The translations under genes were made by a program, and so were the position numbers. 64,000 nucleotides of DNA, taken from NCBI RefSeq assembly GCF_030013595.1, contig NZ_CP122768.1; one strand, given 5' to 3'. A model generated the notes under the pieces. That model searched no databases. It was not told the origin of the DNA and worked only from the letters and a program-made list of their open reading frames with translations. This DNA is from Escherichia coli (GTDB lineage: Bacteria; Pseudomonadota; Gammaproteobacteria; Enterobacterales; Enterobacteriaceae). Position 1 is the stretch's first letter; each line of letters opens with the position of its first letter. Positions 7,428 to 51,077 of the stretch are shown here, one piece after another.

Positions 7428-9332
7428 TTAGAACGATGTTACCCAGCTACGGCCTCTATTTGGGCGTCTGACGATGTTTTGACGTTGTGGTCGTGTGATT
7501 GGCTTAGTTTCTTCGATTTGCTCGTCAGATTGCGATTTAGGAGCTTCTACAGGTTCTTCTGGTTCACGGTTCAAACTATCTTTGATGGCTTCGAGTTTTT
7601 CCCATGACATTTTATTGAGTACATGACGAGAAGCAGCATAGGAATAAGCCAGGCAGTCCAACGCTTCGTTTCGTGTTTGTCCAACTTTTACCCAACGTGT
7701 GGTATTACCCTGCCGTTTCAACTGTTCAGAAAGCAATTGCTCGCAATAGTCATCAGGAACGTCACCAATCTGGAAGACAGTGTGAGGATCGCCATCTCTC
7801 AAGTTCCGGTTAATCATTTCACGGATCATCGTTTTAAGGTTGTTTACGCCCAGAATTTTAAGGGTAAAACCACCCGTTCTTGTGTCTTTTACCGGAAGGA
7901 TTGGTGCATCAACATTGCTTGCGCCTTTAATGGCGGTTAGATTTTGCCACCGACTACAGAATCGATAGATCACGTTTGTAGCTCGTCCGTTCGATGAGTC
8001 CACGAAAGCAGATAACATCGGGATTCGTTCACCGGATCGGGTATAGAATTTAGCTTTCAGGAAGTTGTAAAGCTGGTTATATGCTGGTGATTCGTGGCGT
8101 TCGCAGTTCACATCATAGAATGATCGGTGATCAACTACGCATAGCCCTTTACGAGAAATACCCAGCAAGGTAGATTCCAGACGGTCTTTTTGCTGGTCAA
8201 CTCCACCTACCAGAGCCAGTACATCATCAGGAATATTGTCTAGGCTAATATCAGTTTTCAGCGTTTCTAATTCGTCGGCTGTGCGGTCTTCGTTAAGATC
8301 ATCGAAGGTTTCACCGAGGACTGTATTGTAGAACGTTGCCAGGGACATATTCGCGTAGCTATCAGCAAAGTCCACCACACACGCACGGATAGAACTAAAC
8401 GGAGACATAAGGCGGTTAGCATGAAAACCGATTACTTCCGCGTTTGGTTCGGTGGCGACCCATTCTCCCTGTCCAACAGCACGTAGGCGATCACCCTCGG
8501 TCCAATCGGTTTCACATTCAGGGCAACGGTAAACGGCTGTATCTGGGTTGGGTAATGATTTACCGTTAATCGTATGCCAATCGAAATGTACGTTACTCCA
8601 TTCCATTACGTGCTTGTGTCCGCAATGCTGGCAAACGACATGATATTTTCTCTTATCCGAGAGTTCCCATTGTTGGTTAATCGCCCCATCACGAGCGGTT
8701 GGAGTGGAAGCAATTACGATCCTTGCATCTTCCCCGAAAGTGGTTGCGCGTTGTTCCGCTAGTTGGATCGGGTTCCCTTCGTCTGACTCATCAGCCGCAT
8801 CAACTTCATCAAGAATAATCAAAGGGAGTGTTTTACCGCGAAGATGTGACGGACTATTCAACGACATGAAATACATAAACGATCCGTTACGAAGCTGAAT
8901 AATCGATGAGTTGTTAACGGCATTGCGATCTGATTTGTCGGTGATCATCGCCTTTAATTCTGGTGTTGCCTCTAATACTGGCTTCACCTTACCAGCGATC
9001 CAAGAATTTAGTTCTCTAACGTTACTTTGCAACACCCCAATATTAGTAGGGTTACTCGCGATCCGATGGAAGATAATTCCGTTAAGAATCATGGTCTTAC
9101 CCAACTGTGCCGAACATTTAAACACAATTTTTCTACGGTCTTCGGTGATCGCGTCCATCATTCCACGTTGGAAGGGATGCAATTTAATTAGCGATCCGGC
9201 TTTAACACCATCGGTTGCAACTACATTAGCCTCTACCCATTCGCTAGGTTTCATCGTTTTAGGTGGGCGAATTGCCGCAGAGATATTTTTAAGAATCTTT
9301 TTTAATTTTGCCTTGTTCGAAATCAGTTTCAT
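7428..9332 (-). CDS. Terminase large subunit, lambda GpA family, 634 aa
   Basis: ORF track; recalled lambda gpA similarity: ..HPFQRGMMDAI.. near N-terminus, Walker-A-like KCSAQLGKT, C-terminal RNEALDCLAYSYAA matching gpA RNEALDCFVYALAA. Confidence 0.85.
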   Translation of the reverse strand: MKLISNKAKLKKILKNISAAIRPPKTMKPSEWVEANVVATDGVKAGSLIKLHPFQRGMMDAITEDRRKIVFKCSAQLGKTMILNGIIFHRIASNPTNIGVLQSNVRELNSWIAGKVKPVLEATPELKAMITDKSDRNAVNNSSIIQLRNGSFMYFMSLNSPSHLRGKTLPLIILDEVDAADESDEGNPIQLAEQRATTFGEDARIVIASTPTARDGAINQQWELSDKRKYHVVCQHCGHKHVMEWSNVHFDWHTINGKSLPNPDTAVYRCPECETDWTEGDRLRAVGQGEWVATEPNAEVIGFHANRLMSPFSSIRACVVDFADSYANMSLATFYNTVLGETFDDLNEDRTADELETLKTDISLDNIPDDVLALVGGVDQQKDRLESTLLGISRKGLCVVDHRSFYDVNCERHESPAYNQLYNFLKAKFYTRSGERIPMLSAFVDSSNGRATNVIYRFCSRWQNLTAIKGASNVDAPILPVKDTRTGGFTLKILGVNNLKTMIREMINRNLRDGDPHTVFQIGDVPDDYCEQLLSEQLKRQGNTTRWVKVGQTRNEALDCLAYSYAASRHVLNKMSWEKLEAIKDSLNREPEEPVEAPKSQSDEQIEETKPITRPQRQNIVRRPNRGRSWVTSF

Positions 9333-45352: not shown

Positions 45353-46249
45353 TCAGTAACAGCAGTAGCGAATAAAATAAAAAAATACCGGAGCGGTGAA
45401 AATTAATGAGTCAATCCTGTCAAGGAGTCCGCCATGTCCTGGTAATAGTTTTCCACTATCTTTAACACCAATATCTCGTTTGATGGCTGACATCACTACA
45501 TCGCCGCAAAAACCACTAATACCAATTAACAAACCCGCTAATAATGCCTGTAATGTATCTAGCGGTGTCAGCAACGGTCCAATAATCAGTGACGCAATCA
45601 TGGTGGTGATTACGCCGCCCATCAGACCTTCCAATGTTTTTCCCGGGCTGACTTTAGGGACCACTTTTCTTCTGCCGCAGGATTTTCCCCATAAATACTG
45701 TGCAATATCGTTTGACTCGGTTAATGCCAAAAGAAATAACACCAGTAACGCCCCGCCCTGGATATTTGTGGTTGGCAACATTAATAACCAGGCGGCATGA
45801 CTCAAGGCGAAAACGGTCATTATCCAGCCACAAAAAATGGCGCTCACGGTATGCAGAAAACCGGAGGGGTCACCCACTAAAACTCGCCAGGTGGCTAATA
45901 TCAGAAACCCAGCCAAAGGTATAAATAACAGAAACAGCTCAAAGCAATTAAAACCGATAAGCAAATAGTTAAGAGGAATACCCCAATATAACCAACGCGG
46001 AAAATGTACAGATATAAGCGTACAATATTCTTTCAATGCCAGAAAACTTATCAGCGCAAAAAACGTCAACGTCATCCAGCGTGGACCTGAAATCACCATT
46101 GAAAAACAAATGACGATGCCCCACCAGGTACGAATACGTAATGTAACTTCATCCCCTTTTCTCTCCGGTAACCGCCATACCAGAAAACGGTTTATCAGCG
46201 TTGCTAAAATTAACAACGCGAAAAGTGTTGCCAGAGATTTTTCCAGCAT
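45353..46249 (-). CDS. ynbB: CDP-diglyceride synthetase-like protein, 298 aa
   Basis: ORF track; CdsA-like C-terminal motif. Confidence 0.7.
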   Translation of the reverse strand: MLEKSLATLFALLILATLINRFLVWRLPERKGDEVTLRIRTWWGIVICFSMVISGPRWMTLTFFALISFLALKEYCTLISVHFPRWLYWGIPLNYLLIGFNCFELFLLFIPLAGFLILATWRVLVGDPSGFLHTVSAIFCGWIMTVFALSHAAWLLMLPTTNIQGGALLVLFLLALTESNDIAQYLWGKSCGRRKVVPKVSPGKTLEGLMGGVITTMIASLIIGPLLTPLDTLQALLAGLLIGISGFCGDVVMSAIKRDIGVKDSGKLLPGHGGLLDRIDSLIFTAPVFFYFIRYCCY

Positions 46250-47024: not shown

Positions 47025-49337
47025 TCAATACAACTCATCAAGTTTTCTCATCGCTTGTTCCCGTATTGCGCGCGTCTTACCGTTAAGCGCCAGCTGCCGA
47101 ACTAAATCCAGTTCAGGGTTAACAAGCTCTAACGCCAGCAAAGGATCACGTTTCAGCCTCGCCTTTAATACATCAACTGGAAAACGGGGATTATTCATCG
47201 CCACAATCCACCACTCGGGATCAATTTCTGCCGCCAGTACTGCAGGCGGTGTGTGGCGGTTGCTAAGTGCGCCGAACTTGAAAAATGTGAGATTGCTTTT
47301 CGCCAGTGTACTCCACCATATACGATCCGGTTGTTTTGCCAGTACATCCAGTTGTGCTAACGCATCGGGGTCTAGTGCATAATATACACGTAACGCTTCG
47401 TTAACCTGCGCACGGGAACTGTTTTCCTGCCTCAGAAAAAACTTCGCCAAAATATCATTGCGTGGCGTGTTTTGCTGTAATTCCTTGAGAACAACAGCGG
47501 GTAAATTATCCCAACTAATTAATGCACTCTCTAAAAAGTCCCAGCCTTCCGAACGTATCAGAGAGGTGGCATTTAATAGCATCTGGTCATCAACTTCACC
47601 GTGGCTAATCAGCTCAGACAAAATCATATCAGCGCTGGTTTCATATGCTGCAGAATCTGCTTTCGGATTATTTTTTCGATGCGATAAAGCGCGATGCCAA
47701 ATTTTTTGTTTCATCGCCGTACTCAGATACTGATTTTTCGCCAGATTACTCCACCCCGCAGGATCGTTGAAACGTGTCAATAACCGTTGTAAAGCGGCGT
47801 CAGAGTGAATTACCTGCATATCCTGACAGCAAAAATAGGCAGGAAATTTTTTCTCCATCTTTTTAACAAAATTAAACTGTAAGTTATCTGGCAATGCTAA
47901 AAATAACACACGTATTAGATCATCGTCATTCTCGAATTTTTGGTGTAAATATACTGCTATTTTGTCACTCTCTTGTGGCGTCATCCGCAACAATTGACCA
48001 TGGTGTTTCATCTCTGCCAGCTTTGACGCTAAGCTTGTGACAACATCGTTTGATGAATCGTTCGCCAACTGCATTGCCTGATTGTAGGTGAGTTGTCCTC
48101 CAGCACCGACCTGACGAATAGAGAAATCATCACTGCGGATATAGCCATCAATAATGGATTCGGGCAATAACCACGCATCTTTATAAAGCTCCTGAATGAT
48201 CATATCCCAATCTCTTTTCGCCAGAGTCATGACGATATCCAGAGGGAGATTTTCACGTAGCGCAAGATTCAACGGACCGACACCATCAGGTAGATGACTC
48301 ATTCGCGTCATTATTTCGACAGAGAGCGGTTCACGGTCGAGCAACCCCAGAACAACAGGCTGGTAACCCAATTGCTGATCGGTCAACTCCAGAATCTCAT
48401 TGTCAGGCATATATCTCGCCATACTTGCAATCGTTTGTCCATCATTGCTATTAATAAGTTGTTTGCGTAGGTTAGCTGAAATTCCTTTAAGCCTTGGGAG
48501 AGTTCGCATTACGGCAAGATCAAATGTCGCAATGTCTCGTCCTTCAAATGCAGCAACTTTGCCTTCATCCAGCATTTGCAATTCCTGCACTAACTCAGGA
48601 GAAGGCTTAGGGCGAAACAGCGCTTCTTTTTTCATCTGATTACAGACATTCCCTGCCATGCGAATATTGCTTCGCTTAAAAATTTCTTTCAGAGCATCTT
48701 CATCATTTATTAGGCCCCAATAATATGCATCAGGATTTATTATCGCCAGCGCTTTTTTGACATTTTCAGTGTCATTTTTGTCACTCGCACGGACCATGAA
48801 TTCACTATTTGTCGAAGACGCAACAACAGGTGCAATTATGTCATTGATAAATATCCCACGCGCATTAATACTCCCCTTAATCGTAGACGGATTATCGTAA
48901 TATGAGTCGATAAATACCAGTCCACTTGCATTTATCGAACCGGTAATTAACAGTGGTGAATCCGTAACTATATTCGTTGCCGTCACATCACCGAGAATAA
49001 CCCATGGATTAGAAAGAGAGAAAGTGGAAATATTACCTTTGACTGTCAAATTGCCAAGAACAATCAATTTTTGATTACTCTCTATATTACCTTCTACCAC
49101 TAAATCGCCACGATGCACTTTCCAGTCCGATGCAGATAAACCGAAGGGGACAAGATTCACGCTACTGTTGATAGCTTGTTCAACTTGTTGTTTATCTTCA
49201 GCGGTAGCCGCAGAAAAAAATGGTTCAATATCAACTGCATTTGCAACACATCGAAGTTCCGCCTGTACTGGAAGACTCAGCATAAACAGGGGAAGTAAAC
49301 CTATCCAGCTGCAAATCCTGGGCTTAAACATATGCAC
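47025..49337 (-). CDS. ydbD: Uncharacterised protein YdbD (770 aa tracked from GTG; 768 aa from ATG at 49331)
   Basis: ORF track; signal peptide. Confidence 0.7.
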   Translation of the reverse strand: MHMFKPRICSWIGLLPLFMLSLPVQAELRCVANAVDIEPFFSAATAEDKQQVEQAINSSVNLVPFGLSASDWKVHRGDLVVEGNIESNQKLIVLGNLTVKGNISTFSLSNPWVILGDVTATNIVTDSPLLITGSINASGLVFIDSYYDNPSTIKGSINARGIFINDIIAPVVASSTNSEFMVRASDKNDTENVKKALAIINPDAYYWGLINDEDALKEIFKRSNIRMAGNVCNQMKKEALFRPKPSPELVQELQMLDEGKVAAFEGRDIATFDLAVMRTLPRLKGISANLRKQLINSNDGQTIASMARYMPDNEILELTDQQLGYQPVVLGLLDREPLSVEIMTRMSHLPDGVGPLNLALRENLPLDIVMTLAKRDWDMIIQELYKDAWLLPESIIDGYIRSDDFSIRQVGAGGQLTYNQAMQLANDSSNDVVTSLASKLAEMKHHGQLLRMTPQESDKIAVYLHQKFENDDDLIRVLFLALPDNLQFNFVKKMEKKFPAYFCCQDMQVIHSDAALQRLLTRFNDPAGWSNLAKNQYLSTAMKQKIWHRALSHRKNNPKADSAAYETSADMILSELISHGEVDDQMLLNATSLIRSEGWDFLESALISWDNLPAVVLKELQQNTPRNDILAKFFLRQENSSRAQVNEALRVYYALDPDALAQLDVLAKQPDRIWWSTLAKSNLTFFKFGALSNRHTPPAVLAAEIDPEWWIVAMNNPRFPVDVLKARLKRDPLLALELVNPELDLVRQLALNGKTRAIREQAMRKLDELY

Positions 49338-49353
49338 TCCATGCCATTAAAAA

Positions 49354-50062
49354 AGAATAAATATCCTCCGGCATAGCCGGAGGTTTTTCAAATGCGCCTG
49401 TAAGGCTCTGTTACCAGCCGCGCCCTAACAGGCGCATACGATCTGACATTTGCATTCAACTTCGTTACTTACGGCCCGTAAACGGGCTGCCCGGATATGG
49501 AATCGATAACTGCTCCCCCATTTTATCCTCTTCAAGCTGGTGCTTTATGTAGTCCTGTATCTTCGCCGTGTTCTTACCCACCGTATCGACATAGTACCCT
49601 CGGCACCAGAACTCCCTGTTTCTGTATTTGAATTTCAAATCCCCAAACTGCTCGTAAAGCATCAGACTGCTTTTCCCTTTCAGATATCCCATAAAGCCGG
49701 ATACGCTCATTTTGGGTGGGATTTCCACAAGCATATGGATATGATCTGCGCAGCACTCTGCTTCCAGAATCCGTACGCTTTTCCACTCACACAGCTTTCT
49801 CAAAATACTGCCTATCGCCCTACGCTTCTCTCCGTAAAACGCCAGTCTTCGGTATTTCGGCGCAAAAACTATGTGATATTTACAGTTCCAGCGGGTGTGC
49901 GCTAAGCTCTTTTCGTCCCCCATTGGGACCCCCTTTTGATTTCTTGTTTGACACTTGCAGTTGCCAGACCGCAAGGTGTTTTAACAAATCAAAAGGGGTT
50001 TTAATAACTGGCTCAAAGCTGAAAGCTTTCCGGAACCCCCAGCCTAGCTGGGGGTTTTCTGT
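49354..50062 (-). mobile_element. IS200 (IS200/IS605 family), ~709 bp; boundaries approximate
   Basis: Contains tnpA; LE perfect hairpin AACCCCCAGC-CTA-GCTGGGGGTT at 50034-50056; RE hairpin CCTCCGGCATAGCCGGAGG at ~49365-49383. Confidence 0.8.
49465..49923 (-). CDS. tnpA: IS200 transposase TnpA (Y1/HUH), 152 aa
   Basis: MGDEKSLAHTRWNCKYHIVFAPKYRR.. with HxH motif (ADHIHMLVEIPP); inside tracked ORF 49465..49974. Confidence 0.85.
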   Translation of the reverse strand: MGDEKSLAHTRWNCKYHIVFAPKYRRLAFYGEKRRAIGSILRKLCEWKSVRILEAECCADHIHMLVEIPPKMSVSGFMGYLKGKSSLMLYEQFGDLKFKYRNREFWCRGYYVDTVGKNTAKIQDYIKHQLEEDKMGEQLSIPYPGSPFTGRK

Positions 50063-50145
50063 GCACAAATAAAAAACCGCAACCTGTATCAGCGTTGCGG
50101 TTTGTGTATCACATGCTAAAAATTAGAACGTCCAGCATCAGGACG

Positions 50146-50736
50146 TTACTGTTTCGGTCGCAGATTCTCATCAAATACCAGGCGCTGCCTGCCAGGTTCA
50201 ACTTCCCGCAATGGCTCGACTTGATGTAACGTCTGCTTACAGCGTGTCACCAGCACCTGGTACTCATGCGCACCCTGCTTTTTCCATGCCAACTCCTGCT
50301 CACTGAGTTCACGAATCGCTTTCGCCGGGCTGCCGACAATCAGGTAATTAGCTGGCATTTCTGCTTTGGCTTTCACAAATGCGGATGCGCCAACAATGCT
50401 GTTCTCGCCAATCACCGCACCGTCTATCACTACCGCGTTCATTCCCACTAATGCATTGCGGCGGATAATGCAGCCGTGAAGGATAGCGCTATGACCAATA
50501 TGTCCATCTTCTTCCACGACAGTATCCTGCTCGGGAAAACCGTGCATAACGCAATTATCCTGAATGTTCGCGCCATCTTTCACCACGATACGACCAAAAT
50601 CGCCACGCAGGCTGGCATTTGGCCCAACGTAAACACCCTTGCCGAGAATAACATCGCCGATCAATACCGCTGTCGGATGAACAAAACTCTCTTCTGGCAC
50701 AACCGGAGTCAGACCGTCTATCTGATAAATTGGCAT
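50146..50736 (-). CDS. paaY: Phenylacetic acid degradation protein PaaY (hexapeptide-repeat), 196 aa
   Basis: ORF track; left-handed beta-helix repeats. Confidence 0.8.
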
Positions 50737-50850
50737 AACGCGTCCTGTTCAATATTCAAGCCGCCAAAACGTTGAAAATACAGGCTTCCCGGCGCAGGCA
50801 GTTCACCGACCGAGGTTTCACCTTTTTCACTAACGAACGCTAAAGCAGCA
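50737..50850 (-). pseudogene. paaX: Probable 3' remnant of paaX
   Basis: Minus-frame coding potential immediately upstream of and overlapping paaY start; inferred from K-12 paaXY arrangement only. Confidence 0.3.
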
Positions 50851-50852
50851 GG

Positions 50853-51077
50853 CGCTACGCGCTGATAAAGTTTGCCGATAAAGGTTTGGTGGTCGCGCAA
50901 TATATTCGTAACCGTCGTCTCGATTTTTGTGCTGATGCGATTCGCCATGCCGCAGATGATGAAAAACTGGCAGGTATTGGCTTTCATTGGGGATTTTCCG
51001 ATCAGAGTCATTTTTCAACGGTATTTAAGCAACGCTTTGGGATGACGCCAGGCGAGTATCGACGTAAATTCCGCTAA
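50853..51077 (+). pseudogene. feaR: 3' remnant of AraC-family regulator gene feaR
   Basis: Plus frame encodes only the AraC-type C-terminal HTH (..IGFHWGFSDQSHFSTVFKQRFGMTPGEYRRKFR), open from a stop at ~50850, no plausible N-terminus. Confidence 0.5.

Follow-up and report, generated by a model that had tools for sequence, protein, structure and literature searches.

The locus between paaY and ydbD raises the question of how a copy of IS200 came to lie next to ydbD, and of what became of the genes found there in K-12. The window analysed here is a stretch of 64,000 nucleotides of E. coli DNA (contig NZ_CP122768.1, assembly GCF_030013595.1). In K-12 the gene order is paaY-ynbG-ydbA-pdxI-ydbD, with IS2 and IS30 inserted in ydbA; pdxI (also called ydbC) is the gene for pyridoxal reductase. 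The window holds a single IS200 copy, a 711-bp element on the minus strand between paaY and ydbD. The initial annotation assigned the interval 49338-50145 to this insertion. The interval does contain IS200, but it is the entire paaY-ydbD intergenic region, and the element occupies just 49356..50066 (Table 1). Elements of the IS200/IS605 family move as single-stranded DNA ('peel and paste') and do not duplicate their target. The locus as a whole is best explained, with high probability, by a canonical IS200 insertion and a separate 1,051-bp deletion of pdxI, relative to the allele of E. coli 042.

By its sequence features, the element belongs to the IS200 group of the IS200/IS605 family and is a canonical and intact copy of the single-gene Y1/HUH type. 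The 152-aa tnpA is the sole significant ORF in the 711 bp; tnpB is absent. TnpA matches Pfam Y1_Tnp (E=8e-37) and the NCBIfam equivalog transpos_IS200 (144 bits, cut-off 55), and its PDB relatives are 2ec2, 2f5g, 2a6m (IS608; E=3e-19) and 2xm3 (ISDra2; E=5e-16). It has the H61-I62-H63 motif, Tyr125 and Gln129; the motif and Y125 align with 2ec2. The ends of the element were set by an alignment of nine copies (the window copy and eight copies with flanks), four of which were checked against empty sites in K-12: fadR/ycgB, ompX/opgE, acrD/ypfM and feaB/tynA. Comparison of filled and empty sites at these four loci and at pdxI/ydbD gives an exact 711-bp insertion without target duplication. As TT stands at the end of both the left flank and the right tip, the boundary has an inherent uncertainty of at most 2 nt. 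There are no terminal inverted repeats. Subterminal hairpins are found at both ends, each preceded by GAAAA(A); those at the right end stop at element nt 702, 9 nt short of the tip, and the hairpin at 49365..49383 is terminator-like on both strands in a terminator scan.

Table 1. Features of the paaY-ydbD region and of the IS200 element in the window
Feature	Position	Strand	Description
paaY	50146..50736	minus	intact, 196 aa
paaY intrinsic terminator	50067..50103	minus	hairpin 50074..50103 and T-tail TTTTTTATTT; DNA fold -12.1 kcal/mol, z=-6.5; insertion target
IS200 element	49356..50066	minus	left end 50066, right end 49356; reads GTGCACAG...GGATATTTATT
Left-end subterminal hairpin	50034..50056	minus	element nt 11-33; DNA fold -11.7 kcal/mol, z=-3.0
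tnpA 5'UTR stem-loop	49930..49998	minus	element nt 69-137; pairs with the Shine-Dalgarno sequence; RNA fold -43.2 kcal/mol, z=-4.7
tnpA	49465..49923	minus	element nt 144-602; 152 aa; Y1 (HUH) transposase
Two right-end hairpins	49392..49437 and 49365..49383 (span 49365..49437)	minus	DNA fold -24.1 kcal/mol, z=-5.2
Right-end tail ATATTTATT	49356..49364	minus	final 6 nt similar to the T-rich target 5' of left ends elsewhere
Retained ydbD leader CTTTTTTAATGGCAT	49329..49355	minus	Shine-Dalgarno (SD) GGAG 49337..49340; ATG 49329..49331
ydbD	47025..49331	minus	intact, 768 aa; DUF2773 domain

The Rfam family RF01405 (STnc490) models the left end and 5'UTR of IS200; it matches 49933..50056 (minus strand) over its full length with 146 bits (gathering score 56). 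This match lies on the tnpA-sense strand and takes in the left-end terminator hairpin. Its strand is not to be read as that of the small RNA, because the art200/STnc490 RNA, as published, runs antisense to the 5'UTR of tnpA (PMC4513863). Copies of IS200 at seven other loci retrieved for comparison (L001, L002, L005-L009) are 100% identical to the window copy over all 711 bp, so a chance match is excluded. Such identity between strains of different origin implies that the element has probably transposed or spread recently. The initial annotation had described a complete IS200 between paaY and ydbD, and the TnpA domains, the Rfam match, the hairpins at both ends and the seven identical copies bear this out.

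IS200 of Salmonella enterica is 707-709 bp long, with a terminator at nt 12-34 and a repeat that sequesters the SD at nt 69-138 (Ellis et al. 2015, PMC4513863). The comparison with it is based on the Rfam model and these published coordinates, not on a direct alignment. Both elements have a single tnpA (152-aa Y1), a left-end terminator hairpin, a stem-loop sequestering the SD, the art200/STnc490 region and right-end hairpins, and neither duplicates its target. The window copy differs in being 711 bp long and an E. coli sequence variant; its left-end hairpin (nt 11-33) corresponds to the bidirectional terminator in Salmonella. A closer relative is IS200C of E. coli, the name used by RefSeq/PGAP (TnpA WP_000526135.1), which has the same 711-bp length, the same ends and the same type of target. 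Its copies in L003, L011 and L012 differ from the window copy at 27-29 of the 711 nt. The TnpA of the window is WP_000502112.1, which PGAP names merely 'IS200/IS605 family transposase'. IS608 of Helicobacter pylori and ISDra2 are the mechanistic models of the family. They share with the window element a homologous TnpA, subterminal hairpins, and insertion without duplication in which the left end comes to lie 3' of a short, conserved sequence. They differ in their targets, which are TTAC or TTGAT as opposed to the T-rich tail ending in TT beside a terminator hairpin found here, and in having tnpB.

The element and its arrangement are already annotated in RefSeq genomes; the IS is a known one and its location is typical. 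In tnpA orientation the insertion point is ...TTT^CTTTTTTAATGG (TTT^CTTTTTT). The right tip lies 24 nt from the ydbD ATG at 49331, which is the start annotated by RefSeq in the near-identical genome H1, and 18 nt from an upstream in-frame GTG at 49337. A distance of about 17 bp to the ydbD start had been given before; it holds for the GTG, evidently the start that was used, but not for the RefSeq ATG. As had also been stated, the right end closely precedes the ribosome-binding site of ydbD; the SD is retained.

Comparison with K-12 confirms that ydbA and ydbC (pdxI) are both absent from the window. It had been proposed that IS200 simply took the place of these genes. For ydbA this fails, as paaY lies directly beside pdxI, with neither ydbA nor an IS, in at least 2,024 of 5,426 complete E. 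coli genomes, 042 among them; ydbA is missing throughout the lineage and commonly elsewhere, and its absence is unrelated to the IS. For pdxI it fails as well: the gene went in another event, a deletion of 1,051 bp that runs from one terminator T-tail to another. The full arrangement of the window (paaY, IS200, ydbD) is found in only 2 of the 5,426 genomes, the UK pig isolates HCP5S3_I2 and LCP30S3_I5, which over 12.8 kb share 99.96% identity with the window. Five genomes (KE55, GMF065, XJ6.1 and two others) have IS200 between paaY and a pdxI-ydbD pair.

The closest IS-free reference found is E. coli 042 (L019), which has the order paaY-pdxI-ydbD without IS200 at either site. The paaY flank, including the terminator and its 6-T allele, is 100% identical to that of 042 and relatives over 673 bp. 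The window and 042 also share the feaR'-paaX' remnant that marks a deletion of the paa/tynA/feaB cluster. In the window (50717-51076), a 153-bp 3' remnant of paaX (50717-50869) is fused to a 207-bp 3' remnant of feaR (50870-51076), and the feaB-tynA-paaZ-paaA..K cluster is wholly deleted at this joint. The joint occurs in 13P477T as well as in 042, so it is old and spans the lineage. Downstream of ydbD, ynbB is interrupted by IS1A in 042 (L019 986-1683), whereas in the window it is intact (45353-46249).

Relative to 042, the window has two changes: 711 bp of IS200 have been gained, and 1,051 bp with pdxI have been lost. All 861 bp of pdxI are lost, together with its upstream and promoter region and its terminator. 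In tnpA orientation, 042 reads ...GGTTGCGGTTTTTTATT^GCCGG...[pdxI]...CATTTCCCTTTTGTT^TCTTTTTTAATGGCATGGAGTGCATATG, and the window reads ...GGTTGCGGTTTTTTATT-T-[IS200]-CTTTTTTAATGGCATGGAGTGCATATG. The deletion joint falls within 50067..50069, where the allele of 042 is GCGGTTTTTTATT^GCC.... The paaY and pdxI terminators are co-directional, and the deletion joins their T-tails. Its end-points lie in imperfect 7-nt repeats that agree at 6 of 7 positions, TTTTATT in the paaY tail and TTTTGTT in the pdxI tail. It should be noted that any junction can be fitted post hoc to an illegitimate deletion, and that this repeat matches at just 6 of 7 nt. One canonical insertion and one deletion at short homology make the simplest account of the four routes that were considered.

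The right-end junction of the window with ydbD is found in 63 genomes. Two of these are of the window type; the other 61 have IS200C between pdxI and ydbD. The pdxI/ydbD site is a hot spot for IS200, because IS200C has the identical right-end junction in these 61 genomes. The insertion in the window is independent of theirs, since the two elements differ by 27-29 nt. Our preferred order, to which we give an even chance, is insertion first and deletion second, since the pdxI/ydbD site is a proven hot spot. IS200 would have entered this site, 24 nt upstream of the ydbD ATG, and a short-homology deletion between the tails of the paaY and pdxI terminators would then have removed pdxI, probably by slipped or illegitimate recombination. 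An intermediate with the window variant of the IS at ...CCCTTTTGTTT|GTGCAC and with pdxI still present was found in none of the 5,426 complete genomes and not in a scan of metagenomes.

The reverse order is possible, if rather less to be expected. A 042-like ancestor would have lost pdxI (1,051 bp) to give GCGGTTTTTTATTT^CTTTTTTAATGG, and IS200 would have inserted there second. This comes close to the single insertion into a paaY-ydbD joint that the initial annotation had in mind. The joint would be a canonical target, a hairpin with a 10-nt T-rich tail ending in TT, as at acrD/ypfM and feaB/tynA. The IS in the window is moreover the variant seen at many other sites, not the IS200C found at pdxI/ydbD elsewhere. 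Against this, the insertion would have to fall 1-3 nt from the deletion joint and match, by coincidence, the right-end junction of 61 genomes. The IS-free paaY-ydbD joint (GCGGTTTTTTATTTCTTTTTTAATGG) is absent from all 5,426 complete E. coli assemblies and from metagenome contigs; a junction of this kind without IS200 is what would have contradicted the insertion as first described. EC261, ETEC4088 and 2017.18.04CC came into consideration as carriers of the IS-free joint and were rejected, since they have a different, partial deletion of pdxI.

The deletion in EC261 (L013), and also in ETEC4088 and 2017.18.04CC, is an independent, IS-free loss of the 5' two-thirds of pdxI. It begins 9 nt further into the tail of the paaY terminator (GCGGTTTTTTTATTGCCGGATG|ACGCAATG). 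As it is independent, pdxI appears to have been lost repeatedly at this spot.

Recombination could also remove pdxI if there were two IS200 copies in direct orientation, one behind each of the paaY and pdxI terminators; pdxI and one copy would be lost, either in a RecA-dependent manner or by resolution of a tandem made by TnpA. The two sites are indeed occupied separately, in the five genomes with IS200 between paaY and pdxI and in the 61 with it between pdxI and ydbD, and the copy in KE55 is identical to that in the window. This was the working hypothesis, and it rightly predicted a junction of the pdxI terminator with the IS left end, which was then found in 63 genomes at 99-100% identity; the examples inspected have the arrangement ydbD|IS200C|pdxI. 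The junction in the window itself, however, does not fit. Insertion into the 042 allele GCGGTTTTTTATT^GCC gives ATT|GTGCAC, but the window has ATTT|GTGCAC with one extra T, and a left junction of the KE55 type is different by 4 nt. The model calls for an upstream left junction ...TTTTTTATTT|GTGCAC, or for the empty-site allele GCGGTTTTTTATTTGCC in the lineage. It also needs at least three events and a 1-nt change, and no genome carries both copies together. We regard it as improbable. A deletion adjacent to the right end, starting from a KE55-like ancestor with IS200 between paaY and pdxI, was rejected on the same 4-nt difference in the left junction; the right flank, which is the canonical hot-spot junction, also speaks against this route.

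The paaY terminator is occupied by different elements in different strains. KE55 (L002) has the window variant at this position and XJ6.1 (L003) has IS200C, with 27 differences (IS at about 8001-8711 in both), and the T-runs of the two terminators differ by one T. IS200C is found at the paaY terminator in three genomes. The difference between KE55 and XJ6.1 suggests that a single terminator was hit more than once or that IS copies underwent conversion. Elsewhere, L006 (NZ_CM128605.1) and L009 (NZ_CM128599.1) have a common right flank of IS200, a MarR-family gene, and different left flanks: one strain has the bamD terminator there and the other that of rpoS. The chromosome may therefore have been rearranged between IS200 copies.

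The deletion might instead have been made by TnpA, with the paaY terminator acting as a pseudo right end that was joined to the left end of an IS200 located after pdxI. HUH strand-transfer chemistry, as in the IS608 mechanism, would allow a right end to be joined to a left end within the chromosome. The targets do resemble the right end of the element, being a GC hairpin with a T-rich tail of about 9 nt ending in TTTATT. By reasoning, though, any single consistent cleavage frame predicts one T fewer than is observed, and a precedent was not found in the literature. This route is very improbable.

The insertion, with the deletion that we place after it, may also affect ydbD. Upstream of ydbD there are now, in order, the paaY terminator, the left-end terminator hairpin of the IS and the terminator-like right-end hairpin. 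A search for sigma-70-like sites in 49150..50250 found none on either strand (shuffled sequence mean 1.9). The 63-bp pdxI-ydbD spacer of 042 gave no predicted promoter either; the single match lies inside pdxI and is deleted in the window. Transcription of ydbD should fall, because three terminator-like hairpins lie upstream and any read-through from pdxI is lost. Reduced transcription is plausibly the likeliest effect, unless a weak tnpA promoter reads through.

The insertion next to a terminator is not peculiar to this locus. In 31 of 31 distinct left junctions of the IS200 clade, the element lies directly 3' of a terminator-like hairpin with a T-rich tail ending in TT; by an explicit search for stems and tails, 0.78% of random positions fit the same rule. 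The junctions (window 50067-50103, L002, L005-L010, L012 and L020-L044) comprise nine in E. coli and 22 further ones; besides E. coli, 10 or more other genera of enterobacteria are represented, and at least a dozen species in all. The sources named for the 22 are Citrobacter, Brenneria, Kluyvera, Yersinia, Pluralibacter, Kosakonia, Mangrovibacter and Entomohabitans. In every case tnpA is co-directional with the terminator and the gene that it terminates, here paaY. The final six nucleotides of the target have the consensus T-T-T-[T/A]-N-T-T, which is similar to the right tip of the element, TTTATT.

We tentatively suggest that the IS200 clade may choose its targets by structure and enter only beside intrinsic terminators: a GC-rich hairpin with a T-tail of 5-10 nt ending in TT would mimic the right end of the element itself (hairpin and ATATTTATT). 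The GAAAA(A) 5' of both subterminal hairpins could guide cleavage at the T-rich site. Intrinsic-terminator-like sequences have been reported to be strongly enriched directly upstream of ISs, most of all for IS200/IS605, and the enrichment was read there as limiting transposase expression (bioRxiv 10.1101/2025.07.22.666184). The available part of this preprint agrees with the 31 of 31 junctions here; that part gives no nucleotide-level rule (a T-tail with a final TT 5-10 nt away from the stem) and no resemblance to the right end. An explicit nucleotide-level account of IS200 or IS1541 targeting terminators was not found in the literature, where the preprint's statistical report was the only related one.

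The presence of IS200 together with the loss of pdxI is a marker of a clone represented by two of the 5,426 genomes. The locus also illustrates cleanly how IS200 is attracted to terminators that lie close together, and how the intervening gene is lost. The finding itself is routine; the preference for terminator tails is the only aspect that is perhaps worth pursuing. If targets are chosen by structure, tandem terminators would be recurrent hot spots for IS200 and the intervals between them prone to deletion, as at paaY/pdxI/ydbD. Current work on the IS200/IS605 family treats it as ancestral to RNA-guided nucleases. For this family, the terminator rule is a testable structural rule for target choice, and it would explain why IS200 is unusually quiet, as the element would always be insulated from outside transcription.
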